Shown here: one piece after another, positions 2,529-14,255 of the stretch | Position numbering within the stretch: position 1 is the stretch's first letter | Layout of the letters: every line of letters begins with the position of its first letter | Source: a virus | Virus genome (UHGV): UHGV-0373079 | Strand: one strand, 5' to 3' | Length of the DNA stretch: 36,444 nt | Notes under the pieces: model-generated | Seen by the model: the letters and a program-made list of their open reading frames with translations, nothing else | Database searches by the model: none | Told to the model about the DNA's origin: nothing | Translations under genes and position numbers: made by a program

Positions 2529-4000
2529 TGCCAAATACAGCTAGTTCAAATAGAATCACAGATTTTGTAGACTTAATGGGCAACAGAGTATTGTATTGTG
2601 ACAAAGATGCAGTAATTGATGAAAAACTTGTGGATACGTATATTCAAAAACATCGAAAGCTAATCGGATTTTATGAAGAACTTGAAAAACTATATAACGG
2701 ACAACACGAAATATACTATCAGCAAAGAAAAGAAATGGGGAAACCGGACCACAGAATCGCTGTCAACTTTGCGCGATATGTTGTTGATAGTTCCTCTGCT
2801 TTTTTTAATGGAAAGCCTACAAGAATAACACATCCAGAAGAAAAATTAAAAGATTTTGTTCAGGACTTTCGTAAAAGGAATGAAGAAGAAGATAACGATG
2901 CAGAGCTTTCAAAGTTAACTGCTATTTATGGACATGCCTATAAACTTCTATATCAAAATGAACAGGCGGAAACTTGTGTAACCTATTTAAAACCAACACA
3001 AGGCTTTATTGTTTATGCTGATGATTTATTAAAAGAGCCCATGTTTGCTGTCCTTTATAATAAAGTTTCTGATAATAGTTTAACCGCAACTGTCTATCCG
3101 AAAAATAGTTACGAAACATTTATTTTTACAAAAGAAGAGACGAAAAAAAGGTTTGAAACAAAACGAGGAGTTAGTGTTTTTAAAAAGGCGCTGTCTTATT
3201 TATTAGGTGGGAAAGAGGCTATCACTAATCCATATGGAGAAGTTCCAATGATTGAATTTATGGAAAACGATGAGCGTCAAGGACGAGTTGAAGCGGTCTG
3301 GTCCTTAATTAATAATTACAATGAAGCCTTATCAGAAAAAGCGAATGATGTTAGCTATTTCGCTGATGCATATTTAAAAATGATAGGTGTAGATTTATCA
3401 GATACCGATGTCACAAACTACCTACGAGATAATCGAATTATCAGCAGTGCAGCACCTCTTGAAGAAGGCCAATCAGTTGATATTAACTTTTTAGATAAAC
3501 CGAATTCTGATACTACACAAGAAAACTTATTAAACCGTTTAGAGCGTCTAATTTATCAAATGTCGATGACTTATAACGCAAATGACGAGACATTTAGCCG
3601 CAATGCATCTGGAATTTCGTTAGAATTTAAAATGCAAAATCCAAGAAATCTTGCGCAAGCCAAGGCTAGAAAATTTAAGAAAGCTTATGCGAAGATGTAT
3701 CGAATGATTTTTGCATTACCTACCAACGTTCCGAAAGAAAAAGCAAATGAATGGTTCAATATAGAATATAAATTTGAATTTAATATTCCTCGTAATATTA
3801 GCGATGAAGCAGATACAGCACAAAAATTAGACGGTATTGTGTCAAAAGAAACTCAGTTAAGCGTATTATCGTTTGTCCCTGATGTTAGCCAAGAAATCGA
3901 CAGAATGAAGATAGAAGATTATGATGAAAGGCTTGATCCGCAAGTTGACTTAAGTCTTCTTTCTCAAAAGGATAAAGAATTGAGTGACGAGAATGAGTAA
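2525..4000 (+). CDS. Portal protein
   Basis: 491 aa, sited directly after terL with ATGA-type start/stop overlap. Size and position fit SPP1-like portals. Confidence 0.75.
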   Translation: MMPNTASSNRITDFVDLMGNRVLYCDKDAVIDEKLVDTYIQKHRKLIGFYEELEKLYNGQHEIYYQQRKEMGKPDHRIAVNFARYVVDSSSAFFNGKPTRITHPEEKLKDFVQDFRKRNEEEDNDAELSKLTAIYGHAYKLLYQNEQAETCVTYLKPTQGFIVYADDLLKEPMFAVLYNKVSDNSLTATVYPKNSYETFIFTKEETKKRFETKRGVSVFKKALSYLLGGKEAITNPYGEVPMIEFMENDERQGRVEAVWSLINNYNEALSEKANDVSYFADAYLKMIGVDLSDTDVTNYLRDNRIISSAAPLEEGQSVDINFLDKPNSDTTQENLLNRLERLIYQMSMTYNANDETFSRNASGISLEFKMQNPRNLAQAKARKFKKAYAKMYRMIFALPTNVPKEKANEWFNIEYKFEFNIPRNISDEADTAQKLDGIVSKETQLSVLSFVPDVSQEIDRMKIEDYDERLDPQVDLSLLSQKDKELSDENE

Positions 4001-5759: not shown

Positions 5760-6665
5760 ATGCCAGTTATTTTAGATAGTAAAGATGTAAAAGCAATTGA
5801 CAAAGAATTTGCGGCAGGCTCTCAAGTATGGGAATTGCTAAAAGGTGGAGCGTCTGGTGTTACTGAAGCAGACTTTGTAGGGGCACGTGAAGTACGAATT
5901 AATAAAATGAAGGGTTTTACAGCAAGTGATTATAAACGTAATGAAGAAAACAAACGGAATAAAATTGATGTAAGTAAAGAAACTGTAAAGCTTGAAAAAG
6001 AACGTTGGATGGGCTATGACCTAGATTCATTAGATCAATCGGAAAATGCCAGCTACGAAGTACAAGCCGTCGTCGAAGAACACACTCGGTTAATTTCTAT
6101 CCCGGAAAAAGATCGTACAGCGATTGAGCGTTTATTAGAAGCAGCTTTTGCTGAACCAGCAGAAGATGATACGGAAGGAAAATACGTAGGGAAAACTGTT
6201 GTTGAAACAATCACCAAAGCGAATGCTTTAACATCTTATGATGAAGCTGAGGCTTATATGACAGATACTGAAGTGATTGGACCGTTTATTATGTTTGTAT
6301 CTTCCGATTACTATAAAGCATTAAAAAATGCTGATGGTGTATCCAAATCATTTAGTACTAACGATATCCAAATTTCAGGAATCAATCGTAAAGTTGAACA
6401 ACTAGACGGATCTGATGCGATTATCCAAAAAGTTGCTAAAAACCGATTACAAGTAGACCCAACGAAAAAAATTAATTATATCTTAGTTCCTTTAAACGTT
6501 TGTTCACCTTTGGAAAAATATAACTCAATTGATTTAATTCCAGCAGCGCAAGATCGTGATGGATATCGAGACACTGTTAAAGGATTAGATTACTATGATG
6601 CAATCGTAATTGAGAAAGCGCGTCCTGCAATTTATGTATCGTATGAAAAAGTAGGATCAAAGTAA
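5760..6665 (+). CDS. Major capsid protein
   Basis: 301 aa directly after the scaffold with a strong RBS (AGGAG). The assignment is by position and size. Confidence 0.7.
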   Translation: MPVILDSKDVKAIDKEFAAGSQVWELLKGGASGVTEADFVGAREVRINKMKGFTASDYKRNEENKRNKIDVSKETVKLEKERWMGYDLDSLDQSENASYEVQAVVEEHTRLISIPEKDRTAIERLLEAAFAEPAEDDTEGKYVGKTVVETITKANALTSYDEAEAYMTDTEVIGPFIMFVSSDYYKALKNADGVSKSFSTNDIQISGINRKVEQLDGSDAIIQKVAKNRLQVDPTKKINYILVPLNVCSPLEKYNSIDLIPAAQDRDGYRDTVKGLDYYDAIVIEKARPAIYVSYEKVGSK

Positions 6666-6724
6666 CATCCCCAACCGTAAAAAATGTTACTCCGACGGAA
6701 ACAGGGGCAATTATTGAAGTGGAG
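6647..6724 (+). other. -1-frame open segment overlapping the capsid stop, encoding ...VTSPTVKNVTPTETGAIIEVE; candidate frameshift extension (FN3 strand A-B-like)
   Basis: The segment has no start codon. It is paralogous to 8617-8709 with mostly synonymous codon differences. A Lys-stop context AAG_TAA allows a tRNA-Lys -1 slip. Confidence 0.45.
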
Positions 6725-6727
6725 TAG

Positions 6728-7697: not shown

Positions 7698-8089
7698 TGG
7701 AATTTATCGATCCGTATACAGAATTGTACGAAGGCGTCTTTACAGCAATTGAGAGAGTAGGATATGAAACCTATGATCATCTGCCCAATGATGATGCCGC
7801 TTATCCATTTGTTTTTTTAGGTGAACAGACCTCTAAAGACAAACACACTAAAACAAGAACTTTAGGTACAACAAGTATCATTATTCACGTCTTTGATCAT
7901 GACGACAAACGTCGAGAAATGAATAGACTACTAGCAACAATCCGAAAAACAGTTCATGATATTAGGAAAACAGAACATTTTAGTTGGTCTGTAACGTCCA
8001 GTGATACGGATGTTTTATATGAGAATACAACAAATTTTGGAAACAAATTAGCACATGGCGTTCTAAATTTAACGCTAGAATTTGAATAG
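7697..8089 (+). CDS. Tail completion / tail terminator protein
   Basis: 130 aa, immediately upstream of the major tail protein. Confidence 0.4.
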   Translation: MEFIDPYTELYEGVFTAIERVGYETYDHLPNDDAAYPFVFLGEQTSKDKHTKTRTLGTTSIIIHVFDHDDKRREMNRLLATIRKTVHDIRKTEHFSWSVTSSDTDVLYENTTNFGNKLAHGVLNLTLEFE

Positions 8090-8104
8090 AAAGAAGGAAA
8101 AAAC

Positions 8105-8638
8105 ATGGAAAAAGCAATTCAAGGTAAAAAAATTAAGTTAATGTTTCGACTAACACGTGAACGTGCGACAACAGCAGCGAAGTTGTTAGCTTTAGAAATT
8201 TCACACGAATATAAGTCAGAAACAAAAACAGATACGCAATCAACGAAGGATGGGAATGTTCCTACATCAGGTATGCCGTCAGCGTCTATTGAAATGGAGT
8301 TTTTGCGTACAGGTACAGAAACCTATGATATGTTGAAATATGCATACCGTCATGGCTTAGAAATAGATGTATGGCGCATCAACTTTGATAAAAAAGACGA
8401 GAAAACAGGAAAGTACGAGGCAGAATTTGGCACAGGGTTGCTTGATTCATTTGGAGATTCTGCCGAATCGGATTCAAACTCAAGTATCAAACCTACGCTA
8501 GTATTGAATGGAGATTTAGTTGAAGGTTGGGCGACGGTTGATTCTGATAATGAAGAATTAGCAAAAGCATTCTTCTATGATACTGTTGCAGGTGCGGAAG
8601 CAGAGGAACCAATTGAAAAATATCACCCAAAAAAATAA
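8105..8638 (+). CDS. Major tail (tube) protein
   Basis: 177 aa with an acidic C-terminus. It lies upstream of the Ig-like ORF and chaperone genes. It ends in the A_AAA_AAA_TAA context. Confidence 0.65.
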   Translation: MEKAIQGKKIKLMFRLTRERATTAAKLLALEISHEYKSETKTDTQSTKDGNVPTSGMPSASIEMEFLRTGTETYDMLKYAYRHGLEIDVWRINFDKKDEKTGKYEAEFGTGLLDSFGDSAESDSNSSIKPTLVLNGDLVEGWATVDSDNEELAKAFFYDTVAGAEAEEPIEKYHPKK

Positions 8639-8709
8639 TGGCCCCGAAAGTTGAAAGTGTTACACCTACAACCGACGGGGCAATCGTAAAGATTAAGGAA
8701 GGGGAATAG
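8617..8709 (+). other. -1-frame open segment overlapping the major tail protein stop, encoding KIMAPKVESVTPTTDGAIVKIKEGE; candidate frameshift extension supplying FN3 strands A-B
   Basis: A_AAA_AAA heptamer (8629-8635) sits directly before TAA. The peptide is paralogous to the capsid-end segment. Confidence 0.45.
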
Positions 8710-8711
8710 AG

Positions 8712-9176
8712 ATGCCCGATACGTATAGAATTTATAAAGGTAATGAAAAAGTAGCAGAAAGTGAGAATCCAATCACTCTTGCAGGTCTACAATCTAATAC
8801 TAAATATGAAGCTGGAGCATTTAAGATTGTGCGAGTAAAAGGAAATGAGGAATCTGAAAAAATTCCTATTTCTGAATTTACTACATTGGCCTCAATCGTT
8901 TCGGTAACGGAAGTCACTTTGTCTCCTAAAACTTCTACAGCTAACGCAGGGGTGGCTGGTAGCCGGCAGTTAACTGCAACAGTGACACCAGTAGAAGCGA
9001 CAAATAAAAAAGTATCGTATAAAATTGAGCCAGCAACCGAAGGGCTTGATGTATCAGATTCTGGAAATATCACATGGACAGAAACAGTACCAGCTGGTGA
9101 ATATGTAACCACGGTAACTACAGAAGATGGAAATAAAACAGATACAAACACATTAACATTAACTAAAACAGTATAA
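8712..9176 (+). CDS. Ig-like decoration protein: N-terminally truncated fibronectin type III domain (strands C-G) plus a Big_2 domain
   Basis: Its own strong RBS AAGGAAGGGG. YRIYKGNEK, ITLAGLQSNTKYEAGAFKIVRV and EKIPISEF match FN3 strands C, E-F and G. VTLSPKTSTANAGVAGSRQLTATVTP...VSYKI...G.ITW is a Big_2 signature. Confidence 0.7.
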   Translation: MPDTYRIYKGNEKVAESENPITLAGLQSNTKYEAGAFKIVRVKGNEESEKIPISEFTTLASIVSVTEVTLSPKTSTANAGVAGSRQLTATVTPVEATNKKVSYKIEPATEGLDVSDSGNITWTETVPAGEYVTTVTTEDGNKTDTNTLTLTKTV

Positions 9177-9187
9177 ATATAGCTAAA

Positions 9188-9216
9188 AGGGCAGCTTTTG
9201 ATAGTTGTCCTTTTTT
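9188..9216 (+). terminator. Weak rho-independent terminator
   Basis: AGGGCAGC / GTTGTCCT form an 8-bp stem with two G.U pairs, followed by TTTTTT. Confidence 0.3.
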
Positions 9217-9230
9217 AGGAGGACAAACAG

Positions 9231-9626
9231 ATGGCAGTAAAAATGAAACCTGTAGTAACAATTAACGAGAAAAAATATCCATTGAATTTTGGATTTAAAT
9301 TTTTAAATGAAGTAAAAGCAATAAAACCAGAAGTTGAAGAAGTAGATAATTTTGTGCAGTTGATAGGTGGAATCCAAGACGGAGATGCATTTGCCTTAAG
9401 AGAATTAATTCATGCTGCACTTGCTACTTATGATGATTTGACGACTGAAGATATTGATAATTATTTAGAAACGTCTGATGAGGTTCATAAATTATTTGAA
9501 AATTTTATGATTTTCTTAGAACAAGCACCTCTTACAGCACTTCGTACAAAGAAAGCGAAGGAAGCCATAGAGAAAATCGTGGATCTGATGGAGCAGATGG
9601 ACGTCAACCAAGCGCTCAGTCGGTAG
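9231..9626 (+). CDS. Tail assembly chaperone (gpG-like)
   Basis: 131 aa acidic protein directly upstream of the tape measure. It contains the slippery heptamer. Confidence 0.6.
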   Translation: MAVKMKPVVTINEKKYPLNFGFKFLNEVKAIKPEVEEVDNFVQLIGGIQDGDAFALRELIHAALATYDDLTTEDIDNYLETSDEVHKLFENFMIFLEQAPLTALRTKKAKEAIEKIVDLMEQMDVNQALSR

Positions 9627-10015
9627 AAGACCAAGAGCTAAGTTATGAAGATATAATCGTTGAGTGTTTCCAGTATTTTCCCAACATTACGTTAAAAGAG
9701 ATCGAGCGTATGACACCTTATGAGTTTAGTTTACGAACGAAAGCTGTAAATCTTCGAGCTATTAATGAGGAACGTAAGTTATACGTTAATGCGTTAGCCA
9801 ATCGAATTTTTACGGCTACTGATGATAAAGGTGAAAAATATATTTTTAATGATGTAAAAGATATTTATGATTATGAAAACTTGGAATTAAAAGTTAAAGG
9901 TAAATCTTCATCAGAAGAGCTTGAGAAACTAAATGAAATAACAGAAAATGCGCGTCGATTAGAACAAGCAAGAAAAATAGTTGAGGAAAGGAGGAAAAAA
10001 CATGGGACAGAGTAA
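9500..10015 (+). CDS. gpT-like -1 frame segment of the tail assembly chaperone (G-T fusion by programmed -1 frameshift at A_AAT_TTT, 9500-9506)
   Basis: The -1 frame is open from 9500, exactly at the heptamer AAATTTT, to 10015. The G frame stops at 9626. Confidence 0.55.
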   Translation, partial: KFYDFLRTSTSYSTSYKESEGSHRENRGSDGADGRQPSAQSVEDQELSYEDIIVECFQYFPNITLKEIERMTPYEFSLRTKAVNLRAINEERKLYVNALANRIFTATDDKGEKYIFNDVKDIYDYENLELKVKGKSSSEELEKLNEITENARRLEQARKIVEERRKKHGTE

Positions 10016-13000
10016 ATCTGTGACAGCGATTCTTACGGCCAGAGATAACGGTTTTACTAGAACTATGAATGGTGCCACAGGAGCGATAAAAACTTTTAAA
10101 GTTGGGGTTGGCGGGATTTCTGGAGCTATTCAAACAGCAGGATCAGCGATGGGCTCATTTGGAAATAAGATAAGTACAATCGGCAGCAAAATAGAAAAAG
10201 TAGGTAAATTTTCAACAAAAGCTTTAAGTGTTCCGATTGTCGCAGGGCTTGGTCTTGCTACGAAATCAGCCGTTGAATTCGATAATGAAATCCAAAGTAT
10301 GGGCGCTCTTTTAGATGACGGTAGCTTATCCGCTGGGGATTTGCAAAAACAATTGGCCGGCCTTTCCGATGCATCAATGAAATGGTCACAACAATATGGC
10401 GTTTCGACTAGTGCAATTAACGATGGTATGGCAGAACTTATTAAAAAGGGGTACAGCTATAACCAAGTTATCGGTGCCATGCCGTCTATTTTGGATGCTT
10501 CTAAAGCTTCAGGAGAAGATTTCAACCTGGTAATGAATAACTCTACAGCAGTTTTAGAGCAATTCGGACTTAAAGCCGACTCGACAGAAGAAACGTTGAA
10601 AAATACTCAGAGAGTAACTGACTCTTTAACTTACGTTGCAAATGCGACGGCGGCTGGATTCTCAGATATGGGTGAAGCAATGAAATATGTCGGTCCTGTT
10701 GCTAATACTGTAGGATTCTCAATGGAAGAAACCGCAGCAGCCATAGGCCTTATGTCTAATAACGGTATTGAAGGCTCTATAGCAGGTACGGCGCTACGTG
10801 GTGCTTTAACCAGACTATTAAAACCATCCAAACAAAATATTGCAGGATTCGAGCAATTAGGGATTTCAGTTGATGAATTCAAAAACGGGACATTAACCTT
10901 GCCTGATATCCTAGACAAGATTAAGAATAATACGGAAGGTTGGACTGATGCTCAAAAAGCGGCTGCCATCGCAACAGCTTTTGGAACAGAGGCTCAGTCG
11001 GGGATGAACGTATTAATTCACCAAGGTGGAGATGCTTTACGTAACTTGACTGAAAAAACTCAAAATGCATCAGGTTACACCAAAGAAATTGCTAATACAA
11101 TGAATAATACGGCTGCAGCTAAGATTGAAAAATTTAAAGCAAGCCTCAATGTATTAGGGATAACGATTGGCGAAAAGGTTATTCCGATAATGACGCCTTT
11201 TATTGAAAAAGCAACAGAGCTAATTAAGAAATTCAGTGAAATGGACGAAGGGACAAAAGCGAATATCTTAAAATGGGGAGCGCTAATTGCTGCCATCGGG
11301 CCAGTGTTGACTGTGTTTGGTAAGCTAAGTAAAGTTTTTGGTAAAACAATTTCAGGAATGTTTAGAACTGCTTCAAAATTGGATAGTAAATGGCAACAAT
11401 TTATCGTTAATCCTATAAAAAAGGGGTCAGAAAGTGCTATACAAGCAGTACGAGGATTTGTTTCTAAGTACAAAGCAAATCTTGCTGGATTAGAAAGTTC
11501 TGGTGTTAATGTAAACTTATTAACAAGATTTACCACTTTAGGAGAGACTATTTCAGGTCTTTTTCCTACGTTAGATACATTTAGAGCAAATCTTCGAGCG
11601 AGTCAGAGACAACTAAATATGTTGGGAGACGGAAATAAGGTAACTAATTTCTTTCGCTCTTTTTCTGCCTCCTTACAACTCTCTAATGGGAAATTAGCTA
11701 AATTTGCATCAGTAGTTATTAATCCTATAGGCTCTCTAAGAAATTTATCCACTACTGCTGGGAAGTCAGGGACTGTTTTATCAGGACTCGGCGTAGCTGC
11801 CTCAAAAGCAGGTGGAGGTTTTAGAACATTTGCGGCAACAGGTATACGATCCATAGCTAGCCTAAGTGGTGCAATGTTAAGTAATCCAATTACTGCCGTA
11901 TTACTGCTTATTACTGCTGGAGTTGCTTCAGCAATAAGCGCATGGAAATCAAACTTTATGAATGTACAAGGATACGCCAAGACTGCTTTTGGAGGTATTA
12001 TTGATTCGCTAAAAAATGTCTTACCTAGTTTCAAGAGTGTGACAAACGTAGTAAAAAGTTTCGGGAATACGTTTAAATGGCTAGGAACTGGTGTAATCGT
12101 GGGTACTACATTTGCTATAGCAGGTTTTGTTGATGGCCTACGTTTAATTGTGACCGTTGGTAAGTCAGTAGTTAACGCAGTAATGGCTATGGCTAATGGA
12201 ATCAAAGGCTTGTGGAAAAGATTAACCGGTGATTCTGAAGGAGCTGACAAAGCGTTTAAAGACGCGAAGAAAAGCTTATCTGATATTGAAAAAGATTGGG
12301 ATAAGATGTTTTCCGATTCAGCTTTAAAGAAAGCTGCTAAAAGTACAGAAGAGCTAGGAGAAAAATCTAAGGAAACTGCAAAAGGAATTTCTCTTAATAT
12401 GGAGTCGGCCTCTACAAGTGTAGATGAGTATTCTTCGAAATTAGATGAAGCAAAACAAGCAATGACAGATATGTTTTCGCAAGCGAACGGAAGTACAGCA
12501 GGCGTTGAAGCATACTTCAAAAATACCCTTGACTTAGTAACAAGTATGAAGGAACAACAGAAAAAAGCTGTTGAGACTTATAATAAGCAAATTGAGTCAG
12601 CGGAAGGAAAATCGGAAGAGAAAAAGCGTGAGATCTATGCTAATGCCTCAAGCGAATACATGAAAACTGTTCAAAATTCAAACTCTAATCTAATGAAGGT
12701 CTACAGTGATTATTCTGCTCAACTTAAAAATAATAAAACGGTTGAGGGTCAAGAGCTGAACGAACAGCAAAGAAATACGCTACAAAATCAAACAAATATT
12801 ATTCGCGATCAGTTGTTACAACAAAACAAACAGTATGTTGAAGCAAGCGTTAATAAATTAGCTAACAAACAACAACTAAGTGCTCAAGAGCAACAACAAG
12901 CACAACAAAGTTTACAGACATTAGGTGAAATTGAAACTCAACAGATACAAGCAAATGATGCACAAATTAAGCAATTGACCGATCAGAAGAATCAAGCAAA

Positions 13001-14255
13001 AACAGCATCAGAACAAGCAGCGTTCCAAAACCAAATCACACAGTTACAAACACAAAATGCTCAGATTAGACAAAATGAGTTAGAACAAGGGGCACAATTA
13101 TTAGCTATCATTTCACAAAATGGTTCGAATAATGTCGCTGTCACTTCAAATAATCTAGCACAATTAAAAAATGTCACGGATCAACAGTTATTAGGTGTTT
13201 ATCAATCCTATGTAAATAACGGGGCAAACACTAACGAACAAATGGCATTGCTTGCAGGAATGCTACGTCAAAGAGGGATAGATGGAGCAAATGGCCTTGT
13301 TCAAGGTCTCCAAAGTAGCGACCCATCAAAATGGGCGAGTATGTCTCGAGCAGATATAATTAACACTTTACAAGCTTTACCTCCTGATTTATTTAGAAAT
13401 GGTCAAGACGGTAAAAACCAGTTAATTAACGGGCTTGAATCAGGTAAAACAGCAATCAATAACGTTGGTAAAGAGTTAATGTCTTCAATGAATAGTGGTC
13501 AAAACTCTCAAAAGTCCAATTCAAGACGAGCAGGTGCTGACAATAGTAGTGCCACCGCTGAGGGTACCAGAAGTAAAAGCAACGAGCATAAAAATGCTGG
13601 GAAAAGTAACGCACAACAAACGAACTCTGGTACTAATTCAGAAAAATCCAACGCAAATAATGCAGGTAATCAATTAGGCGCGGCAACTGTTCAAGGTGTC
13701 CTTTCTCAAACAGGTGGTGCGAATAATGCTGGTAAGTCATTAGGTAATGCTGTAAGTAACGGTGCTGGATCAGTAGACATGAGCCCAATTGGTGTTAATA
13801 TGGCGAGAGGCGTTGGAAGTGGGATTACGGCAGGAAAAGCTGCCGCCGTGGGAGCTATGCAACAATTAGTTGCAGAAGTTAACGCAGAAGCGCAAAAAAA
13901 AGCTAAAATCAAATCGCCTTCAAGATTATTGAAATACAGCGTAGGTGTTTTCCTAGCACAAGGGGTCGCTGCTGGTATTAAAGAAGATACGTCAGTTGCT
14001 GTTCAAAGTGCTAGAGATATGATTACAAGTATTCAAAAATCTATTACAGGTAGTAACCTTGTTAAACGTTCCAATGCTATAGAAATTAAACATTCCATTG
14101 ACAACACACCGATAAATAAAATGTTTGAGATGTTACAAGATATTAAAAATTTAACAGTTGTAATGGATACAGGACGTGTTGTTGGCGCACTTGGAACACC
14201 GATGAACAATAACTTAGCAGAACAACAAAAGCAAGATGGGAGGTATCGTAGTTGA
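10002..14255 (+). CDS. Tail tape measure protein
   Basis: About 1417 aa. AAAGGAGG lies before ATG 10002. Gly/Ala-rich membrane-like segments and a long Q/N-rich coiled-coil region. Canonical position. Confidence 0.85.
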   Translation: MGQSKSVTAILTARDNGFTRTMNGATGAIKTFKVGVGGISGAIQTAGSAMGSFGNKISTIGSKIEKVGKFSTKALSVPIVAGLGLATKSAVEFDNEIQSMGALLDDGSLSAGDLQKQLAGLSDASMKWSQQYGVSTSAINDGMAELIKKGYSYNQVIGAMPSILDASKASGEDFNLVMNNSTAVLEQFGLKADSTEETLKNTQRVTDSLTYVANATAAGFSDMGEAMKYVGPVANTVGFSMEETAAAIGLMSNNGIEGSIAGTALRGALTRLLKPSKQNIAGFEQLGISVDEFKNGTLTLPDILDKIKNNTEGWTDAQKAAAIATAFGTEAQSGMNVLIHQGGDALRNLTEKTQNASGYTKEIANTMNNTAAAKIEKFKASLNVLGITIGEKVIPIMTPFIEKATELIKKFSEMDEGTKANILKWGALIAAIGPVLTVFGKLSKVFGKTISGMFRTASKLDSKWQQFIVNPIKKGSESAIQAVRGFVSKYKANLAGLESSGVNVNLLTRFTTLGETISGLFPTLDTFRANLRASQRQLNMLGDGNKVTNFFRSFSASLQLSNGKLAKFASVVINPIGSLRNLSTTAGKSGTVLSGLGVAASKAGGGFRTFAATGIRSIASLSGAMLSNPITAVLLLITAGVASAISAWKSNFMNVQGYAKTAFGGIIDSLKNVLPSFKSVTNVVKSFGNTFKWLGTGVIVGTTFAIAGFVDGLRLIVTVGKSVVNAVMAMANGIKGLWKRLTGDSEGADKAFKDAKKSLSDIEKDWDKMFSDSALKKAAKSTEELGEKSKETAKGISLNMESASTSVDEYSSKLDEAKQAMTDMFSQANGSTAGVEAYFKNTLDLVTSMKEQQKKAVETYNKQIESAEGKSEEKKREIYANASSEYMKTVQNSNSNLMKVYSDYSAQLKNNKTVEGQELNEQQRNTLQNQTNIIRDQLLQQNKQYVEASVNKLANKQQLSAQEQQQAQQSLQTLGEIETQQIQANDAQIKQLTDQKNQAKTASEQAAFQNQITQLQTQNAQIRQNELEQGAQLLAIISQNGSNNVAVTSNNLAQLKNVTDQQLLGVYQSYVNNGANTNEQMALLAGMLRQRGIDGANGLVQGLQSSDPSKWASMSRADIINTLQALPPDLFRNGQDGKNQLINGLESGKTAINNVGKELMSSMNSGQNSQKSNSRRAGADNSSATAEGTRSKSNEHKNAGKSNAQQTNSGTNSEKSNANNAGNQLGAATVQGVLSQTGGANNAGKSLGNAVSNGAGSVDMSPIGVNMARGVGSGITAGKAAAVGAMQQLVAEVNAEAQKKAKIKSPSRLLKYSVGVFLAQGVAAGIKEDTSVAVQSARDMITSIQKSITGSNLVKRSNAIEIKHSIDNTPINKMFEMLQDIKNLTVVMDTGRVVGALGTPMNNNLAEQQKQDGRYRS

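Follow-up and report, generated by a model that had tools for sequence, protein, structure and literature searches.

A split fibronectin type III domain as a putative docking device for a shared Ig-like decoration protein on phage heads and tails

The 36,444 nt virus genome UHGV-0373079 (the whole stretch is referred to here as the window) contains a siphovirus-type structural module in which an FN3 (fibronectin type III) domain appears to be divided between genes. Short peptides read as FN3 strands A and B, from here on called tags, are encoded in a shifted frame at the 3′ ends of the major capsid gene and of the major tail (tube) protein (MTP) gene, and a separate open reading frame (ORF) at 8712–9176, ORF 8712, starts at strand C of the same fold and continues into a Big_2 immunoglobulin (Ig)-like domain. 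We propose, with a probability of approximately 0.7, that these parts constitute a split FN3 docking system, dosed by ribosomal frameshifting, which places one Ig-like decoration protein on both head and tail. The three-part architecture is conserved in related phages, the tags are under selection as peptides, and FN3 homology extends across the junction between tag and ORF, while in relatives the ORF product occurs as a free protein and the capsid protein as two species. An initial annotation of this region, made from the sequence alone, had first described the arrangement, and its sequence statements on frames, stop codons and ribosome binding site (RBS) all hold.

The MTP gene (8105–8638, on the + strand like all window features described here) has a 0-frame product of 177 aa, which matched Pfam Phage_tail_2 (E = 4e-13) and PHROG 238 (E = 2e-47). 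Its last codons, CAC CCA AAA AAA TAA, contain the in-phase −1 slippery run C_CCA_AAA_AAA (8626–8635), which holds both C_CCA_AAA and A_AAA_AAA and is directly followed by the TAA stop codon (8636–8638), and a canonical in-phase X_XXY_YYZ heptamer is thus present within the frame overlap. The −1 frame is open from 8617 and encodes KISPKKIMAPKVESVTPTTDGAIVKIKEGE (also given as ...PKKIMAPKVESVTPTTDGAIVKIKEGE) up to a TAG at 8707–8709. The tail tag itself, IMAPKVESVTPTTDGAIVKIKEGE with this stop codon (8635–8709), was read as FN3 strands A and B, and scored 34.6 bits with the tag profile described below, of which it is one of the training sequences. A stem-loop of the form GGCCCCG...CGGGGC (8641–8681) starts 5 nt past the slippery run and is a possible frameshift stimulator, with a minimum free energy of −17 kcal/mol and a z-score of −2.2 (3/200 shuffled sequences were as good). 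Its arms coincide with the codons of the conserved tag residues A-P (GCC CCN) and D-G-A (GAC GGG GCN), as they do in phiEf11 (L001) and in locus L002, and RNA and peptide constraints may thus be overlaid on the same bases. Similar stems were visible by eye in the phages phiEf11, IME197 and Carnobacterium cd4, and an analogous stem was described by the phiEf11 authors. The tail-tag frame also has an ATG (8638–8640) that shares one base with the MTP stop codon in a TAATG overlap (8636–8640), where termination-reinitiation could in principle yield a free 23-aa peptide. This ATG is probably incidental, since no start codon was seen in the capsid-tag frame or in the short tag frames of relatives that were looked at, without a systematic check; translation of the tag as a separate micro-ORF was rejected, as the ATG is found only in the window's tail tag.

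A comparable tag is located at the end of the major capsid protein gene (5760–6665; 0-frame product of 301 aa; PHROG 422 major head protein, E = 2e-67). This gene ends in TCA AAG TAA, and its −1 frame encodes KVTSPTVKNVTPTETGAIIEVE with a TAG stop codon at 6725–6727. As the −1 frame is open only from 6647, a shift would be confined to 6647–6662. The candidate site is A_AAG adjoining the TAA stop codon (6659–6665), based on the sequence and on the shift sites of relatives, which lie directly before the stop codon, and another possibility is a P-site slip on GAA_AAA_G (6645–6651). The capsid tag, VTSPTVKNVTPTETGAIIEVE and its stop codon (6662–6727), was likewise read as strands A and B, and scored 31.9 bits (E = 2.6e-8) with the tag profile, being one of the 13 tags from which that profile was built. 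Within the 1,097 stop-terminated peptides from both strands of the window, the best non-self match of the tail tag was the capsid tag, with a Smith-Waterman score of 56 versus 26 for the runner-up, and the likeness between the two tags is not due to chance. The recurrence of the A-B peptide at the capsid gene end, as initially annotated, is therefore confirmed, and relatives also carry tags at both gene ends.

ORF 8712 lies in the third reading frame and starts 2 nt past the stop codon of the tail tag. Its RBS, AAGGAAGGGG (8695–8704), overlaps the final tag codons and is located 7 nt 5′ of the ATG, and a Shine-Dalgarno-like motif precedes the start of the ORF in all relatives. Residues 1–60 (8712–8891) comprise only FN3 strands C, C′, E, F and G, as judged from the Pfam fn3 profile, the conserved start of the family and the strands in AlphaFold2 models, and residues 61–154 with the stop codon (8892–9176) represent the displayed module, a Big_2 Ig-like domain (PF02368), for which a sequence or structure match was obtained in agreement with the domain order first described. 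On its own, ORF 8712 matched Pfam fn3 (PF00041) at profile positions 32–82 of 84 with 15.3 bits (E = 0.024), where the gathering score is 25 bits. The seven strands A–G are thus not present in one polypeptide, with profile positions 2–30 coming from a tag on another gene, and the modelled N-terminal domain is an incomplete sandwich that would serve as a catcher. ORF 8712 is also a full-length member of PHROG 341 (E = 6e-37, profile positions 1–150 of 154). The only invariant side chain in the N-terminal domain of the family is Y8, with no invariant Lys, Asp, Asn or Glu, and this domain shows no sign of a conserved isopeptide triad (Lys, Asp/Asn, Glu).

The start of ORF 8712 in the middle of the FN3 fold, which rests in the window on the weak match from profile position 32 onwards, is shared by its homologues. 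In a search of 5.8 billion proteins, 61/61 homologues begin at strand C and none has strands A and B, with the longer ones gaining only C-terminal Big_2 domains. A search of 1.84 billion representatives with residues 1–62 gave 59 matches, with 38/59 beginning at residue 1–6 of short proteins; the remaining 21 were internal FN3 repeats within large proteins, an expected result since the query corresponds to the C-terminal two-thirds of an ordinary FN3 domain. A sequence search of the PDB found no solved structure of the N-terminal domain.

The complete layout (a tag at the capsid gene end, a tag at the tail-tube gene end and a separate ORF starting at strand C) was found at approximately 20 loci representing at least five host genera, with Enterococcus, Staphylococcus, Carnobacterium, Brochothrix and Bacillaceae phages among them. 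A megablast search of positions 8000–9300 against the phage collection gave no match, and relatives were found at the protein level only. Apart from the window, the carriers include L105, phiEf11, IME197, Staphylococcus phages 187 and 3A, Carnobacterium cd4, Brochothrix BtpYZU02, the Bacillaceae prophages L008–L010, L100 and L101, the E. faecalis prophages L106 and L109, and the IMG/VR contigs L086 and L087. L105 is an independent metagenome assembly with an ORF 98% identical to ORF 8712 and identical tags, and has the gene order terminase, portal, scaffold, capsid, connectors, tail tube, Ig-like ORF, tail chaperones and tape measure. The initial annotation had suggested a comparison with related enterococcal phages to see whether the frames are fused there, and in phiEf11 and IME197 tag and ORF are kept separate: their Ig-like ORFs (55–57% identity to ORF 8712) have a separate start at MVDTFKIYKG. 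The tail-tube gene of IME197 ends in G_GGA_AAG TAG, with GKVDSPSVGSVTPTVDGASIELS and a stop codon in the −1 frame, and the same peptide, GKVDSPSVGSVTPTVDGASIELS, is in frame at the C-terminus of the phiEf11 tail-tube protein, while the capsid genes of both phages have a similar −1 peptide. The Ig-like ORF is located 3′ of the tail-tube gene in some phages and 3′ of the capsid gene in others, with tags at both genes in nearly all. Phage EH93P1 has a tail tag only. Of the two gene ends, L108, a short contig, includes just that of the capsid gene, where a capsid tag was seen. The missing A-B hairpin proposed to lie upstream in the −1 frame of the MTP gene thus has counterparts at approximately 20 loci, and AlphaFold2 folds the tag as strands A and B.

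The association of the tags with both gene ends was assessed with a hidden Markov model (HMM) built from 13 tags and run on every stop-terminated peptide of both strands. In untrained loci spanning both gene ends, this HMM gave exactly two matches each, at the ends of the capsid and tail-tube genes. The best score in 86 control loci (1.46 Mb, 44,742 peptides) was 13.4 bits, while most true tags scored 15–36 bits. A genome-contig scan seeded on the Big_2 half gave mostly Bacteroidota Big_2 proteins, and apart from L008–L010, the only useful ones, its loci served as negative controls; a scan of viral contigs gave two useful loci. The diverged tags of L100, L103, L108 and phage 3A had lower HMM scores, and were recognised by position and by eye.

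Nearly all out-of-frame tags have a shift motif directly before the stop codon, in a frame overlap of only 5–68 nt. The −1 sites were G_GGA_AAG, A_AAA_AAA, C_CCA_AAA and G_GGG_GAG, with the C_CCA_AAA of the window's tail-tube gene also present at both tag sites of L086 and A_AAA_AAA also at the phiEf11 capsid gene, and G_GGA_AAG was found at both genes of BtpYZU02. The +1 sites were CCC_TAA, CCC_TCG_TAA and CCC_AGC_TAA: the latter occurs at both genes of phage 3A, CCC_TCG_TAA at the capsid gene of phage 187, and CCC_TAA in Carnobacterium cd4, in which a +1 shift at AAA_TAG is also predicted. For CCC_UGA, +1 shifting has been documented in the tsh genes of Listeria phages. In two phages (phiEf11 and phage 187) the tag is the plain in-frame C-terminus of the tail-tube protein, and the hairpin is therefore a C-terminal extension of the structural protein. 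Between capsid and tail tags of the same genome, 91 differences fell at codon position 1, 96 at position 2 and 154 at position 3, and the six cleanly aligned tag pairs gave 24, 22 and 58, a pattern which at the sequence level shows selection of the tags as peptides. Together with the in-frame cases, the shift motifs and the two capsid bands of phiEf11 described below, this third-position bias indicates that the tags are translated.

The FN3 assignment was examined by in silico fusion of tags and ORFs. In Carnobacterium cd4, L100, L087 and L108, the unfused ORFs scored 20–29 bits with Pfam fn3 and matched only from profile position 32–52 onwards, whereas the tag-ORF fusions scored 34–37 bits over profile positions 2–83 of 84; for L100, the full fn3 match was restored with the capsid tag and the tail-tube tag alike. 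Homologues of the 'MAYNVYQG' type, with 50–55% identity to ORF 8712, pass the fn3 threshold alone with 28–29 bits, yet only from profile position 32–45 onwards, and the tags of this YNVYQG class close with the strand-B hallmark motif (e.g. ...TLSWE and ...KLTWD, each followed by a stop codon). The fn3 scores of staphylococcal (class III) fusions were too weak to bear on the assignment. FN3 similarity is therefore present in a profile-HMM comparison, at sub-threshold level in the window and above the gathering score in homologues, and since the window's own scores are sub-threshold, its FN3 assignment rests on the homologues and on the AlphaFold2 model.

When the tail tag of the window was joined directly to ORF 8712, AlphaFold2 gave a confident two-domain model, with a mean predicted local distance difference test score (pLDDT) of 93. 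The alignment supplied for this chimera covered only the ORF part, and the tag, which had no alignment cover, formed strands at VESVTPT and GAIVKI with a pLDDT of 85–95. Tag and ORF together adopt a β-sandwich fold in this model, and strand E of the ORF was formed only in the direct chimera. A design resembling the situation in trans (ORF, 32-residue linker and capsid tag) had a disordered linker and placed the tag in two strands at lower confidence. A Foldseek search of the PDB with the two-domain model returned only generic tandem Ig/FN3 proteins. The shared start of the homologues at strand C, the fusion scores and the direct-chimera model support a truly split FN3 domain with its break in the B-C loop.

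Published virion data on relatives provide evidence at the protein level. In virions of phiEf11 the capsid protein, encoded by a single gene, was reported as two bands at 38 and 41 kDa, for which the authors proposed a 21-residue −1 extension, noticing the capsid extension only. A mass of 21.5 kDa is predicted for the phiEf11 MTP including the in-frame tag, but the protein runs at 28–30 kDa in sodium dodecyl sulphate polyacrylamide gel electrophoresis (PMC5221750, Table 1); as nothing below 27 kDa was resolved in that gel, the 16 kDa product of the Ig-like ORF was outside its range (PMC5221750). Matrix-assisted laser desorption/ionisation time-of-flight (MALDI-TOF) analysis of intact staphylococcal phages listed the 'Ig-like domain' protein YP_239945 of phage 3A, a family member preceded by tags, at 15,857 Da, and we computed 15,855.2 Da for this homologue without its Met. 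The product of the family ORF is thus a free polypeptide in virions of relatives. For Brochothrix phage NF5, a cryo-electron microscopy paper reported no decoration; the relation of NF5 to BtpYZU02 was not checked.

The same elements were recognised outside the head and tail module in Kayvirus, where three adjacent genes are located at 11337–12746 of L099 (Staphylococcus phage Sb-1, HQ163896). The first, orf141, has an in-frame tag at its end (...SAPKNVQVTPKEDGADVSAE and stop codon), with a computed mass in Sb-1 of 23,068 Da and a MALDI-listed mass of 23,069 Da. The second, orf142, encodes a truncated FN3 and a Big_2 domain with a tag-like peptide at its end (..PADVTVEPGENSADITV and stop codon), and its computed mass of 17,745 Da in Sb-1 compares with a listed value of 17,718 Da in phages K, 812 and K1/420, a 27 Da gap tentatively attributed to strain variation. 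The third, orf143 (75 aa), is a bare truncated FN3 (MEKTLKVYSNGE..) of 7,817 Da computed and 7,818 Da listed. From their sequences, orf141, orf142 and orf143 look like a chain of split FN3 links, and PHROG 215, which spans both Kayvirus genes, suggests that unsplit versions may occur elsewhere. Since virion masses equal those of the free chains, non-covalent association is favoured and a fused product disfavoured. We consider it somewhat probable that Firmicutes phages use a natural two-strand tag and catcher (split FN3) as a general non-covalent connector, which in Kayvirus (phages K, 812 and Sb-1) may chain three virion proteins.

Several loci deviate from the common layout. In the E. gallinarum prophage L107 (4930–5310), the capsid gene has an IME197-like end (..IQPAGE and stop codon), and in its −1 frame a Big_2 domain (GGVTVPVTGVTVSPK..) follows immediately. 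An FN3 part is absent, and the tail-tube gene carries no tag; judged by sequence, L107 has the same decoration module in its classical, covalent form. As the L107 capsid end leads directly into Big_2 without FN3, the split FN3 looks like an adaptor which delivers Big_2. EH93P1 (L005) combines whole-domain and split-FN3 solutions in one phage: an ORF encoding two Big_2 domains comes after its capsid gene and overlaps it (380–965; TAATG overlap and a long A run), and its tail-tube gene with a +1 split-FN3 tag is followed by a truncated-FN3 ORF (3376–3944). L103 has a 70-aa ORF (5789–6001) between the tail-tube tag and the Ig-like ORF, which begins with MADTLKLGKNETI, nearly identical to the start of the Ig-like ORF (MADTLNLYKDEEL), and looks like a partial duplication of the 5′ end of that ORF. 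Finally, in L010 (Geomicrobium sp. JCM 19038, 9963–10445) a frame change approximately 38 nt past the ATG breaks the Ig-like ORF, with both tags intact, which is probably a homopolymer error in the draft assembly.

In the mechanism that we propose, some ribosomes at the end of the capsid or tail-tube gene would slip by −1 before the stop codon (at A_AAG_TAA and C_CCA_AAA_AAA_TAA, respectively), which would append a peptide of 21–24 residues that represents FN3 strands A and B. ORF 8712 would be translated independently from its own RBS and ATG, giving strands C to G followed by Big_2, and a tagged capsid or tail-tube subunit would then complete the ORF 8712 sandwich non-covalently with its A-B hairpin, tag strand B being expected to pair with strand E of the ORF as in FN3. 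The computed masses are 19,850 Da for the 0-frame tail-tube product and 22,346 Da with its tag, 33,654 Da for the capsid product and 35,821 Da with its tag, and 16,423 Da for the ORF 8712 protein (16,292 Da without Met). Head and tail could thus both be decorated with an Ig-like domain by one small gene, with an occupancy that would follow the shift efficiency; for in-frame tags, such as those of the phiEf11 and phage 187 tail-tube proteins, it would be 100%. The hypothesis of −1 frameshifting and docking, as first put forward for the tail-tube gene, has gained from the shift sites, the conserved layout, the fusion scores and the MALDI mass of a relative, with physical docking in trans as its presumed last step.

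Some observations weigh against split-FN3 docking. Frameshifting in the window's phage and physical complementation are both inferred; in place of a canonical heptamer, the capsid shift site offers only A_AAG before the stop codon, and no significant RNA structure was detected downstream of it (z-score of +0.9 to +1.0). Part of the A-P and D-G-A conservation could be owed to the GCCCC/GGGGC stem rather than to the peptide. The window ORF and its fusions with either tag scored 15.1–15.6 bits, under the fn3 gathering score. In the trans-like AlphaFold2 design the pLDDT of the tag was just 66–71 and strand E was unassigned, and this design therefore did not demonstrate docking in trans. In the relatives, the phiEf11 study detected no extension peptides by mass spectrometry (MS), and for the tail tube of phage 3A the MALDI study gives the 0-frame mass only.

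The outcome of the trans-like run, the window's sub-threshold fn3 scores and the absence of extension peptides from the phiEf11 MS data would also be expected if the tags were short C-terminal extensions that serve a separate function (such as assembly or stability) or a tolerated by-product of slippage, with ORF 8712 entering the virion otherwise or never, and the FN3 likeness being a relic of a once fused domain. We regard this as unlikely, as tags occur only in loci with a truncated-FN3 ORF, with 0/86 controls positive, and as tag and ORF types co-vary: LSWE/LTWD tags are found with YNVYQG ORFs, PNAKSV with LKVYR/LNLYK, and TPTTDGA with FKIYKG. A relic would not be expected at both genes in approximately 20 loci with divergence biased to third codon positions, and every family member exposes an N-terminal half-sandwich of five strands, which requires a partner. 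The stretch behind the stop codon could instead be an RNA element (a frameshift or termination-pause structure, or a transcription terminator) rather than encode a functional peptide, in line with the stem 5 nt past the tail-tube slip site (z-score of −2.2) and the similar stems seen in phiEf11, IME197 and Carnobacterium cd4. The concentration of divergence at third codon positions of the tag frame makes this very improbable, as do the completion of the fn3 profile match by the tag peptides, the in-frame MTP tags of phiEf11 and phage 187, which need no stimulator, and the lack of significant structure at the window's capsid tag.

Two further explanations would connect the tag covalently to the ORF. 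A second recoding event at the tag stop codon (readthrough, hop or other shift) would give an MTP-FN3-Big_2 fusion, and in phiEf11, IME197 and BtpYZU02 a single readthrough would suffice, with the tag stop codon and the ORF ATG in the same frame and 12–18 nt apart. This is nevertheless improbable: in the window the ATG lies 5 nt past the start of the stop codon, in another frame and with no slippery motif, while elsewhere the gaps are 14–64 nt, the frames vary, and in L103 the 70-aa ORF lies in between. Furthermore, a tag at the gene that is not followed by the ORF has no downstream partner, and the phage 3A virion protein has the mass of the free, Met-processed ORF product. The other explanation supposes that an ordinary MTP-FN3-Big_2 gene, fused by frameshifting, was split by an indel introduced in sequencing or assembly, or by a recent inactivating mutation. 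One additional base in the G run at 8701–8704 would indeed join both frames, and homopolymer errors are common, as the broken ORF of L010 illustrates. The stop codon after strand B, the RBS and the ATG are however kept across independent isolates and genera, the capsid tag ends likewise with nothing downstream, and the independent assembly L105 has identical tags. The conservation of this stop codon and of a separate RBS and start codon rules out both an indel and a fused extension of the conventional kind, and the simple-indel alternative raised in the initial annotation is refuted by the comparative data. All of these rival explanations fit the data worse than split-FN3 docking.

Downstream of ORF 8712, the window contains a tail assembly chaperone pair (9231–9626 and 9710–10015), the first ORF of which matches Phage_TAC_12 while the second is in the −1 frame relative to the first, as is usual for the G/GT-type frameshift that lies upstream of the tape measure gene (9981–14255).

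Ig-like extensions made by frameshifting are known from SPP1 gp17.1*, Lactobacillus phage A2 gp5B/gp10B, T3/T7 gp10B and the Cps-L and Tsh-L proteins of Listeria phages A118, A500 and PSA, and were surveyed in 'Ig-like domains on bacteriophages' (Fraser et al. 2006). The arrangement described here resembles these in the recoding at the extreme 3′ end of major capsid and tail genes, with −1 and +1 sites including CCC_stop and with in-frame variants, and in its purpose, the presentation of FN3 or Big_2 modules on some of the subunits. It differs in that the shifted frame encodes two β-strands (21–24 residues) and then stops, without a complete domain, and in that Big_2 and the remainder of the domain come from a separate gene, which has its own start and would serve head and tail alike, with non-covalent attachment. 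Listeria phage A118 has the classical version, with a whole-domain Ig-like ORF (ORF13) that overlaps tsh and is not split. The arrangement is widespread among phages of Gram-positive bacteria, and departs from the known Ig-like extensions in splitting the domain.

As a small Ig-like accessory protein made alone and added to the virion surface, the ORF product is comparable to T4 Hoc, T5 pb10 and the N4 decoration protein. These bind via a dedicated capsid-binding domain which recognises the assembled lattice, whereas the binding site proposed here would be a recoded tag through which the fold of the decoration protein itself is completed, and one protein would serve the capsid as well as the tail tube. 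The completion of an incomplete Ig-like sandwich by one or more strands of another polypeptide is known from donor-strand complementation in chaperone-usher pili and from engineered split tag and catcher pairs (SpyTag/SpyCatcher and FN3 fragment complementation). An incomplete fold and a cognate peptide on other proteins were both seen here, but two strands (the A-B hairpin) would be donated instead of the single strand of the pilus system, and the donor would originate from translational recoding of a virion structural gene. Unlike with SpyTag/SpyCatcher, there is no sign of an isopeptide triad, and the virion masses of family proteins are those of free chains.

The ORF family is annotated as 'major tail protein' in PHROG 341, and as 'phage tail protein' or 'putative Ig domain-containing protein' by NCBI, with none of these annotations mentioning the truncated FN3 nature of the N-terminal domain. 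The PHROG 341 label is one by association, the true tube protein being the product of the upstream Phage_tail_2 gene. We found no description of a split FN3 or Ig domain used as a docking tag in the full-text literature searched, and gene callers currently overlook all of these tags.

Why phage capsid and tail genes are recoded at their ends is an old puzzle. If split-FN3 docking is true, the short recoded extensions so far without an assigned role, such as the 21 residues of phiEf11, gain a concrete and testable function, and a shared decoration protein would explain why the PHROG 341 ORF adjoins the capsid gene in some phages and the tail-tube gene in others. The natural tag and catcher pairs have diverged from one another, forming at least three sequence classes, and could be used as orthogonal handles for non-covalent display on phage heads and tails. 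The assembly principle would then be that a decoration protein recognises a piece of the fold to which it belongs, with translation controlling the dose, which would allow approximately 460 nt to decorate two structures.

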